Positions 8,183 to 10,036 are shown, counted from the first letter of the stretch. The stretch: DNA of 23,946 nucleotides from a virus (IMGVR_UViG_2562617151_000005), one strand, 5' to 3'. Notes: generated by a model from the letters alone, not told the origin. A program made the numbers and translations.

Positions 8183-8326
8183 GTGTTAATTTCTGGTCAT
8201 GAGGTAATTTTCAGGAGGGCTTGTGGCAAAAGTTTTTACACAAGAAGAGCGGGAAAAAATTAAAGGGCAGGTTGTTGAACTCGTACGCCAGAGTGGGCGC
8301 GAGACGTTACGACAACTGGAAACTAA

Positions 8327-9522
8327 GGAAGGTGCGAACAAGTTCCTGATATGAGATCATCATATTCATCCGGAGCGCATCCCAGAGGGACATCATGAGC
8401 CATCAACTCACCTTCGCCGATAGTGAATTCAGCACTAAGCGCCGTCAGACCCGAAAAGAGATTTTCCTCTCCCGCATGGAGCAGATTCTGCCATGGCAGA
8501 ATATGACCGCTGTCATCGAGCCGTTTTATCCCAAGGCGGGCAATGGCCGACGGCCCTATCCGCTGGAGACCATGCTGCGTATTCACTGCATGCAGCATTG
8601 GTACAACCTGAGCGACGGTGCCATGGAAGATGCCCTGTACGAAATCGCCTCCATGCGCCTGTTTGCCCGATTATCCCTGGATAGCGCCCTGCCGGACCGC
8701 ACCACCATCATGAATTTCCGCCACCTGCTGGAGCAGCATCAACTGGCCCGCCAATTGTTCAAGACCATCAATCGCTGGCTGGCCGAAGCAGGCGTCATGA
8801 TGACTCAAGGCACCTTGGTCGATGCCACCATCATTGAGGCACCCAGCTCGACCAAGAACAAAGAGCAGCAACGCGATCCGGAGATGCATCAGACCAAGAA
8901 AGGCAATCAGTGGCACTTTGGCATGAAGGCCCACATTGGTGTCGATGCCAAGAGTGGCCTGACCCACAGCCTAGTCACCACCGCGGCCAACGAGCATGAC
9001 CTCAATCAGCTGGGTAATCTGCTTCATGGAGAGGAGCAATTTGTCTCAGCCGATGCCGGCTACCAAGGAGCGCCACAGCGCGAGGAGCTGGCCGAGGTGG
9101 ATGTGGACTGGCTGATCGCCGAGCGTCCCGGCAGGGTAAAAACCTTGAAGCAGCATCCGCGCAAGAACAAAACGGCCATCAACATCGAATACATGAAAGC
9201 CAGCATCCGTGCCAAGGTGGAGCACCCGTTTCGCATCATCAAGCGGCAGTTCGGCTTCGTGAAAGCCAGATACAAGGGGCTGCTGAAAAACGATAACCAA
9301 CTGGCGATGTTATTCACCCTGGCCAACCTGTTTCGGGTGGACCAAATGATACGTCAGTGGGAGAGATCTCAGTAAAAACCGGAAATAACGCCAGAAATGG
9401 TGGAAAAAATAGCCTAAATAGGCTGATTCGATGTGTTTGCGGGAAAAAAATCGGCCCAGATCCGCGAAATTTTAATCAGCGAGTCAGCTTGGGAAGAAAT
9501 GACCTGCTTATTCGCACCTTCC
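8327..9522 (+). mobile_element. IS5 insertion sequence with 4-bp CTAA target-site duplication (8323-8326 and 9523-9526)
   Basis: Terminal inverted repeats GGAAGGTGCGAA(C/T)AAG at both ends; about 1.2 kb; single transposase ORF; flanking CTAA direct repeat. Confidence 0.9.
8395..9375 (+). CDS. insH: IS5 transposase InsH
   Basis: 326 aa beginning [36 protein letters not shown]..., recognised as IS5 transposase. Confidence 0.95.
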
Positions 9523-10036
9523 CTAATACTGGGGCAACAAGATATCTGATGAGCGTTCTGGCCAGAGAGCTGGTTGCCAGTGGCGATGTATACAACTCTG
9601 GTTACGGGTTATTCCCGTCTGAACAGGCGCGTAAGGACTGGCAAAATGCCCGTAAAAAGCTCTCAAGGGCAAAGCTGAAGAAACCATCTGCGGTTGATCC
9701 GGACCTTATCTGGTCATTACCTGACGGAGAAATACGTCGCTACGACAGGCGTCAGAACATAATCTGTCGCGAGTGCCGGAAGAGTGAAGTTATGCAGCGC
9801 ATATTGTCGTTTTATCAGGGTGATGTTCGGTATTTATTGAAGTGACGAGATTAAAGTGCATTAGTTCAGATGCAAATTGACATTTTGTGGCACAGGGTAG
9901 AGCTAGCGTGGTTGTCCGCTTTGTGCCAATAGCGGACATTGCTGGCTCATGGTATGTTAGTTTAAGGAGGCAGGTTATGCCCTGTATTTCGCTGTGGTAT
10001 AATAGTTGCGCAATTGATACAAGGGAGCGTTACATC

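Follow-up and report, generated by a model that had tools for sequence, protein, structure and literature searches.

Has an insertion sequence that lies immediately behind the replication gene of a lambdoid prophage removed a replication function, altered the expression of the genes that follow, or simply interrupted an accessory gene? This question is raised by a stretch of viral DNA of 23,946 nucleotides (IMGVR_UViG_2562617151_000005; hereafter, the window), in which an IS5 copy separates two short open reading frames (ORFs). A preliminary description had read the insertion as recent and precise, had assigned the split gene to a second replication function that the prophage probably lacks, and had pointed to possible effects of IS5 on the cassette downstream. 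Our analysis indicated that the event was very probably a simple, base-precise IS5 transposition into a dispensable Ren-like gene of the DUF977 family in a defective lambdoid prophage, with little effect on the cassette.

The element and its insertion site

The element, read directly from the sequence and with a script, is an IS5 isoform of 1196 bp (Table 1). It opens with GGAAGGTGCGAACAAG at 8327 and closes with CTTATTCGCACCTTCC at 9522; the left flank runs ...GGAAACTAA up to 8326 (at greater length, ...CAACTGGAAACTAA), and the right flank starts with CTAATACTGGGG at 9523. All parts of the site noted in the preliminary description were confirmed at the coordinates stated there. The terminal inverted repeats are identical at 15 of 16 positions, and an independent repeat finder returned the same arms. 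Both ends of this ~1.2-kb element thus carry the 16-bp repeat GGAAGGTGCGAA(C/T)AAG of IS5. A 4-bp YTAR target had been duplicated, with CTAA on both sides of the element, while natural empty sites have CTAA only once; other IS5 copies are flanked by duplications of TTAA, TTAG or CTAA. The encoded protein is an IS5-family DDE transposase (NCBIfam NF033581, 367 bits against a cut-off of 140 bits; Pfam DDE_Tnp_1, 122 bits; DUF772, 75.5 bits) that differs from K-12 InsH5 at three residues, and since it is full length, the IS copy looks active.

Table 1. Features of the interrupted locus and its surroundings, in coordinates of the window.
Feature	Position	Strand	Basis or remark
O-like replisome-organizer gene, intact, upstream context	7223..8182	+	PHROG 391 at 5.9e-115; gene calls
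5' fragment of DUF977/Ren-like (LygF) gene	8223..8326	+	GTG start, codons 1-34 plus 2 nt; same GTG in PGAP intact homologue
CTAA target-site duplication, left copy	8323..8326	.	Sequence read and script; single CTAA at empty sites
IS5 isoform (ISKpn26-type in PGAP naming)	8327..9522	+	Transposase gene co-oriented with interrupted gene; identity to IS5Y and other E. coli copies
Left terminal inverted repeat, GGAAGGTGCGAACAAG	8327..8342	.	Script and repeat finder
ins5A transposase, 326 aa, intact	8395..9375	+	Pfam DDE_Tnp_1, DUF772; NCBIfam NF033581
IS 3' region, 177 bp, counterpart of 'IB' in the literature; faces downstream cassette	9346..9522	+	A-tracts at 9374, 9404, 9444
Right terminal inverted repeat, reverse complement GGAAGGTGCGAATAAG	9507..9522	.	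Script and repeat finder
CTAA target-site duplication, right copy	9523..9526	.	Sequence read and script
3' fragment of DUF977/Ren-like gene	9527..9845	+	Third base of codon 35 to stop
AT-rich two-gene cassette, downstream context	9977..12016	+	Gene 1: ATG 9977 or GTG 10037 to 10999; gene 2: 11015-12016

Alignment with IS5Y of K-12 revealed 99.08% nucleotide identity over 1196 bp (11 mismatches, 0 gaps). Under the ISfinder convention, an isoform has more than 95% nucleotide identity, and at this level, near-identity to the reference copy indicates that the name IS5 is correct. Other E. coli genomes contain copies with 100% identity that extends to the CTAA flanks, under the PGAP label 'IS5-like element ISKpn26 family'. 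IS5Y and the window copy share the length of 1196 bp, the 16-bp inverted repeats GGAAGGTGCGAA(C/T)AAG, a 326-aa DDE transposase, and a duplicated YTAR target. As in the window, the insertion of IS5Y into lomR of the Rac prophage is a simple one that splits a prophage gene. The window copy is unlike IS5Y in 11 nucleotides, in its target gene, and in its identity with the PGAP ISKpn26-family copies.

Removal of the IS together with one CTAA joins 8223-8326 to 9527-9845 in a 423-nt ORF of 140 codons plus stop, in frame, as the preliminary description had stated; a script reproduced the result, and thousands of genomes contain the gene intact. Uninterrupted homologues, defined as matches over at least 80% of the length of the restored ORF, were identified in 3,984 of 5,426 complete E. 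coli genomes, and the top matches listed are annotated 'DUF977 family protein'. A prophage beside ompW in strain Z1323PEC0008 (L001) was collinear with the window on both sides and had a single CTAA at the position of the IS. Moreover, five IS-free contigs (L023-L027: NCBI GCA_012357415.1 and GCA_001933075.2, two Logan assemblies, and one ENA metagenome) contained the exact empty site CAACTGGAAACTAATACTGGGG, again with a single CTAA, and were 99.5-99.9% identical to the IS-deleted window across the junction over 3.3-8.8 kb, which identifies them as the same prophage. Comparison with IS-free relatives had been set as a test of the preliminary description, and it showed that the halves belong to one gene and are not naturally separate genes. 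The two short ORFs flanking the IS are one DUF977/Ren-like pseudogene interrupted by IS5.

The base that follows the right CTAA, T at 9527 (Asn35), was absent from the six aligned DNA alleles, and Asn35 occurred neither among 54 protein cluster representatives nor at 1,695 matching sites in complete E. coli genomes. We ruled out a transposition-linked gap-repair error as the source of this base: an exact-sequence look-up showed that the restored protein exists intact in nature (P0122, WP_075331927.1), with Asn35, and the five IS-free contigs read CTAAT. Both observations argue that the insertion was base-precise, as the preliminary description had supposed, and that T 9527 predates the IS.

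On the left side, the 5' fragment reads on into the IS as far as a stop at 8354, giving a 43-aa product with nine IS-encoded residues and a weak Pfam match to DUF977. Recognition helix, wing, and the C-terminal CRECRKSxxMQRIL motif, which is conserved, all fall in the 3' fragment, where no Shine-Dalgarno sequence was found before the first in-frame Met (9549). In the proposed mechanism, an active IS5 isoform would have inserted at CTAA (YTAR) inside a small accessory prophage gene, so that helices 1-2 are cut off from recognition helix, wing, and conserved C-terminal motif. The outcome is a null allele: the N-terminal part survives as a 43-aa stub, and the C-terminal part lacks a ribosome-binding site.

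The interrupted gene and the replication module

The restored ORF is a member of Pfam DUF977 (PF06163; 105 bits against a cut-off of 22.1), with residues 1-135 covering model positions 1-133 of 134. It also matched PHROG 142, 'Ren-like exclusion protein', at 1.6e-45 (profile positions 1-113 of 116), and lambda Ren (NC_001416) matched the same profile at 1.6e-41 (positions 11-110 of 116), so that full-length membership of PHROG 142 is common to both. In pairwise comparison, only the C-terminal 20-23 residues of the DUF977 protein and lambda Ren could be aligned (BLASTP E 1e-5; hhalign, 72% probability), and lambda Ren gave no match when searched with Pfam DUF977. The C-terminal alignment of the DUF977 protein/Ren pair (BLASTP, hhalign) sets NIICRECRKSEVMQRILSFY against NLVFKECRQSAAMKRVLAVY, with the shared pattern N-[IL]-[IV]-x-[RK]-E-C-R-[KQ]-S-x-x-M-[QK]-R-[IV]-L-x-x-Y. 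Phage records call the gene LygF or 'Ren-like exclusion protein'; LygF is a mere label from a Salmonella Enteritidis-specific region, and our literature search found nothing on DUF977/LygF function. The restored gene had no significant match in a PDB sequence search and none in PADLOC or NCBIfam, and no Rfam family was found within 8223-9845. YdaW of K-12 was rejected as a homologue; it carries DUF1627 and had no BLASTP match.

An AlphaFold model of a homologue 95% identical to the restored protein had pLDDT values of 90-95 for residues 11-70 and comprised helices at 7-24, 29-36, and 40-53, the last of which leads into a beta-hairpin wing. Foldseek matches to this model, statistically weak and examined by inspection, were mostly winged-helix DNA-binding domains (e.g., GntR, MarR, IclR, BirA, and Z-alpha). 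A winged helix-turn-helix is thus predicted for the N-terminal ~65 residues. Codons 34 and 35 flank the point of IS entry, where helix 2 ends and the recognition helix is about to begin. The N-terminus of lambda Ren gave weak matches of the winged-helix type, where the DUF977 model has its winged helix. Unlike lambda Ren (96 aa), the restored protein has 140 aa and contains an additional helix and a linker of low confidence (residues 67-110). The DUF977 protein may be described as Ren-like by analogy, and resistance to Rex exclusion is a putative property of DUF977 proteins.

The position of the gene bears directly on the replication question. Gene calls confirmed that the split gene directly follows the O-like gene (Table 1), as the preliminary description had noted. 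The O-like gene contains iteron-like repeats (7576-7642), and the C-terminal half of its product matched DnaD-like helicase-loader PHROGs and, weakly, the DnaT C-terminus. The gene order is O-P-ren in lambda and O-like, replication protein P, DUF1627, DUF977 in E. coli C7; in the window, DUF977 follows the O-like gene. Phage Tritos and several prophages have the order replisome organizer, DUF977, cargo, hokD. In the P-less modules examined, DUF977 always stood directly after the replisome organizer, and no separate P or DnaC gene was present. Like lambda ren, the DUF977 gene belongs to the early rightward operon, where the replication genes immediately precede it. Given the order O-P-ren in lambda and the order of P and DUF977 in C7, the DUF977 gene occupies the lambda ren position and not the P position.

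The most serious alternative is that DUF977 acts as the partner of a single-gene replisome organizer, so that the IS removed a required second function and disabled replication of the prophage. That DUF977 comes immediately behind the O-like gene in all P-less modules examined would fit such a partnership. A preprint considered lambda Ren 'likely involved in DNA replication' and reported its interaction with Rex proteins (bioRxiv 10.1101/2021.04.19.439022). However, the restored ORF had no match to the P, DnaC, DnaB, and DnaD loader families in Pfam, PHROG, and NCBIfam, and the DnaD/DnaT-like helicase-loader matches sit in the C-terminal half of the O-like protein itself. Furthermore, C7 has the DUF977 gene downstream of a replication protein P gene, lambda has ren besides O and P, and lambda ren mutants are viable. 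The predicted fold of the DUF977 protein, a small winged-helix DNA-binding domain, also speaks against a loader. A required replication role for the DUF977 gene is therefore very unlikely, and the claim of a lost second replication function did not hold.

Under the preferred reading, a simple transposition into a Ren-like gene, the split gene would sit in the place of lambda ren, after the replication genes and before the variable cargo and the nin region. This placement makes a dispensable accessory or counter-exclusion function the most likely one by analogy, rather than that of a helicase-loading partner of the O-like protein. The knockout would probably be near-neutral for the host. The prophage, a lambdoid one of E. 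coli/Shigella, was already defective apart from the IS: ORF 22364-23179 fuses the N-terminus of a large terminase to the C-terminus of a tail fibre, and a NanS-like esterase is truncated to 344 of about 634 residues. The insertion may thus represent one more step in the decay of a prophage that had already lost its morphogenesis genes.

The downstream cassette

The cassette downstream of the split gene has a GC content of 33-41%, against roughly 50-57% in the flanks; IS-free relatives carry the same cassette behind the same upstream DNA. The end of the IS lies 455 bp from the ATG at 9977, 515 bp from the GTG at 10037, and 473 bp from a TGGTATAAT motif. That motif, at 9995-10003, is the only strong -10-like motif and would fall inside gene 1 should ATG 9977 be the cassette start. 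A sigma-70 scan of 7900-10300 returned no site, and extended -10 motifs are therefore given as sequence observations only. Between the ins5A stop and the GTG at 10037 lie 661 nt, across which no intact gene is translated and Rho-dependent polarity could act; a terminator scan returned one weak plus-strand site, within the expectation from shuffled sequence.

In the window, the IS and the early rightward operon share one orientation, with the 3' A-tract region of the IS on the downstream side. [quoted passage not shown] The same orientation to the downstream unit is found in the IS5-activated glpFK, flhDC, fucAO, and bgl systems, and the 3' A-tract region is intact in the window copy. Unlike the IS in those systems, the window copy sits in a coding sequence, 455-515 bp from the next gene start, instead of preceding a promoter by ~100-170 bp. 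On its own, the ins5A promoter is essentially silent, and transcription can run through the entire IS (PMC11894529). Together with the terminator scan, these properties make read-through from the early operon across the IS plausible by analogy.

A different reading would make the insertion adaptive: the bent-DNA/IHF 3' region, or a disruption of H-NS silencing, would change expression of the cassette, and the lineage would have been selected for that change. In all described activating IS5 insertions, the ins5A promoter is distal and the 3' IB end proximal (PMC2753651), and the window IS has this orientation. The GC content of the cassette is typical of H-NS-bound DNA, which makes an H-NS-related effect conceivable, and IS5 activates bgl independently of position and orientation (PMC2753651). 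The presence of the allele in at least 24 contigs from several samples could also be taken as a sign of selection. However, activating flhDC insertions lie at -99.5 and -169.5, and activation of glpFK depends on helical phase (PMC2753651), whereas the distances from the IS end to the candidate starts and to the TGGTATAAT motif run to 455, 515, and 473 bp; an arrangement of the glpFK/flhDC type, with the IS 3' end ~100-170 bp from the start in the correct helical phase, was not found at these candidate starts. The fusion promoter of the fucAO type requires an activator (Crp) site directly before the left inverted repeat (PMC11894529). In the window, unlike fucAO, the left inverted repeat has no such site fused to it: the best match to a Crp-like site (TGTGA-N6-TCACA) in 8180-8345 had 4/10 mismatches, and no fusion promoter of this type is to be expected.

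The identity of the cassette and its upstream region in IS-free relatives further weighs against adaptation, as does the tight clonality of the carriers (0-2 SNPs), with which the spread of the allele needs no selection on the IS. IS5 near DUF977 genes in other genomes was also about as frequent as a rough chance estimate. In a search that joins co-oriented pieces only, a co-oriented copy was found at 8 of ~6,300 loci, close to that expectation, and DUF977 was rejected as an IS5 hot spot; a short way downstream of DUF977 genes, four further independent IS5/ISKpn26 insertions were seen. We regard selection for altered cassette expression as highly improbable, and the earlier proposal that IS5 alters expression of the cassette found no specific support. 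Under a simple transposition into the Ren-like gene, little effect on the cassette would be expected because its upstream sequence is unchanged, the IS end is 455-515 bp away, the ins5A promoter is weak, and no strong intrinsic terminator faces the reading direction.

Age, spread, and significance of the insertion allele

An exact look-up of the 43-aa junction product identified the same insertion allele in at least 24 other public contigs, which rules out a private singleton. One carrier, scaffold JH660541.1 of GCA_000158415.2, was 100% identical to positions 5223-11354 of the window; GCA_965137835.1 is another, and the remainder are ENA and Logan metagenome assemblies. The IS junction was not found in complete E. 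coli genomes, and exact-pattern scans for it returned nothing from JGI metagenome contigs or from a collection of species-representative genomes, in which the empty site was also not found. Among carriers, differences outside the IS amounted to 0-2 SNPs and a single indel of a GCG codon at 7514. Carriers differed from the nearest empty-site contigs by 2-3 SNPs and one codon indel over 4.4-5.6 kb. Because carriers and empty-site relatives differ so little, the insertion is young, which bears out its description as recent. Its occurrence in at least 24 other contigs shows that the allele marks a small circulating lineage.

These contigs also leave a negligible chance that the feature is an artefact (a misassembled IS, two separate ORFs, or a junction of IS-IS recombination): although IS copies are a classic source of assembly error, and the IS of one contig (L011) differs from the window copy at seven clustered positions, suggesting copy mixing in that assembly, the 4-bp duplication is perfect, both flanks are contiguous in empty-site contigs, the same junctions recur in the at least 24 independently assembled contigs (NCBI, ENA, and Logan), and the gene is intact in thousands of genomes.

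The event is a textbook IS5 insertion at YTAR in a non-core prophage gene, and both the element and the target family were already known. For annotation, the halves flanking the IS should be read as one IS5-interrupted DUF977/Ren-like pseudogene. With a Ren-like winged-helix protein as the target, this reading replaces the view that the insertion struck a core replication gene. There is a very small chance of a wider significance, either that DUF977/Ren-like proteins are partners of single-gene replisome organizers in P-less lambdoid modules or that the co-oriented IS5, its bent and putatively IHF-binding 3' end turned towards an AT-rich HEPN-like cargo cassette, rewires expression of that cassette in the lysogen. 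The public alleles of the same prophage, the carrier GCA_000158415.2 and the empty-site GCA_001933075.2 and GCA_012357415.1, form a natural near-isogenic pair suited to probing the function of Ren-like/DUF977 proteins and any effect of IS5 on the cargo genes beside it; if either possibility were true, this pair of carrier and empty-site lineages would provide a ready-made isogenic test.

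Replication and immunity region

Iteron-like repeats lie in the interior of the O-like gene, which encodes a replisome organiser, at window 7576-7642 and 7679-7712 (GTTGACCCGTCAAAT twice and CC[CT]GATCCGTCAG twice), and double as coding sequence for a repeated V-D-P-S peptide; by analogy with lambda O, they are a candidate origin. Elsewhere in the O-like protein, at window 7514, an alanine run lacks one GCG codon in the window and in L010, a contig carrying the same insertion, whereas the codon is present in all five other carrier contigs covering the position (L011-L015). The metagenome-derived carrier contig L011 also differs from the window in its IS copy, with seven differences clustered at the equivalent of window 9024-9159, probably reflecting IS copies mixed in the assembly or IS-IS gene conversion.

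In the immunity region (window 5990-6791), the repressor is a 139-aa protein of PHROG 5736 and the Cro-like protein has 93 aa, whereas the closest complete-genome relative, the IS-free prophage next to ompW in E. coli Z1323PEC0008, has racR in its place. This difference shows mosaicism within an otherwise collinear prophage.

IS5 copies near other DUF977 genes

A search joining co-oriented copies only identified four other independent IS5/ISKpn26 insertions, in E. coli 2017.13.01CC, SCU-482, 23AR0998, and C7, located approximately 10-390 bp past the DUF977 stop codon in the same orientation, each with a separate YTAR duplication (TTAA, TTAG, CTAA, and TTAA, as listed). The frequency of such insertions downstream of DUF977 genes looks compatible with chance.

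Cargo genes and structured RNAs

Between the Ren-like gene and hok/sok lies an AT-rich cassette (GC, 33-41%) of two cargo genes, in which PADLOC found no match and whose proteins were assigned to PHROGs 17908 and 16994, neither with a known function. The first protein showed a sub-threshold match to HEPN_RES_NTD1 and contains an RNHLVH motif (R-x4-H, HEPN-like), and the second ends in a GNAT-like segment, RRRGLLSKL. Gene callers differed on the start of the first gene, placing it at ATG 9977 (Shine-Dalgarno AAGGAGG) or GTG 10037. Farther downstream, both STnc100 copies follow the Q antiterminator and tRNA region.

Features of the window (RNA families counted when above the Rfam gathering score)
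Feature	Position	Strand	Source
DicF	4537-4588	-	Rfam
Cassette gene 1	9977/10037-10999		
Cassette gene 2	11015-12016		
sok, adjoining hok	12465-12639	+	Rfam
Three tRNAs (anticodons CAT, TCG, TCT)	17164-17413	+	
STnc100, two copies	17489-17679 and 17957-18166	+	Rfam
Two overlapping convergent genes	19845-21474	opposite strands	
IS009	23522-23720	+	Rfam

Prophage decay

The expected place of the lysis genes is occupied by the convergent pair, possibly a further cargo or defence-like module: one gene belongs to PHROG 984, labeled sce7726 family in related genomes, and the other, on the opposite strand, codes for a 'Beta protein' (PF14350) of 355 aa. The ORFs scanned at window 19.4-21.9 kb included no recognisable lysis genes. 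The NanS-like (DUF1737/SASA) esterase at 18389-19423 comprises only 344 aa against a profile of about 634. Within window 21886-23179, approximately 86 residues from a terminase large subunit are fused to the C-terminus of a tail fibre in ORF 22364-23179, an arrangement implying that the head and tail genes have been deleted. The prophage in the window is a remnant.
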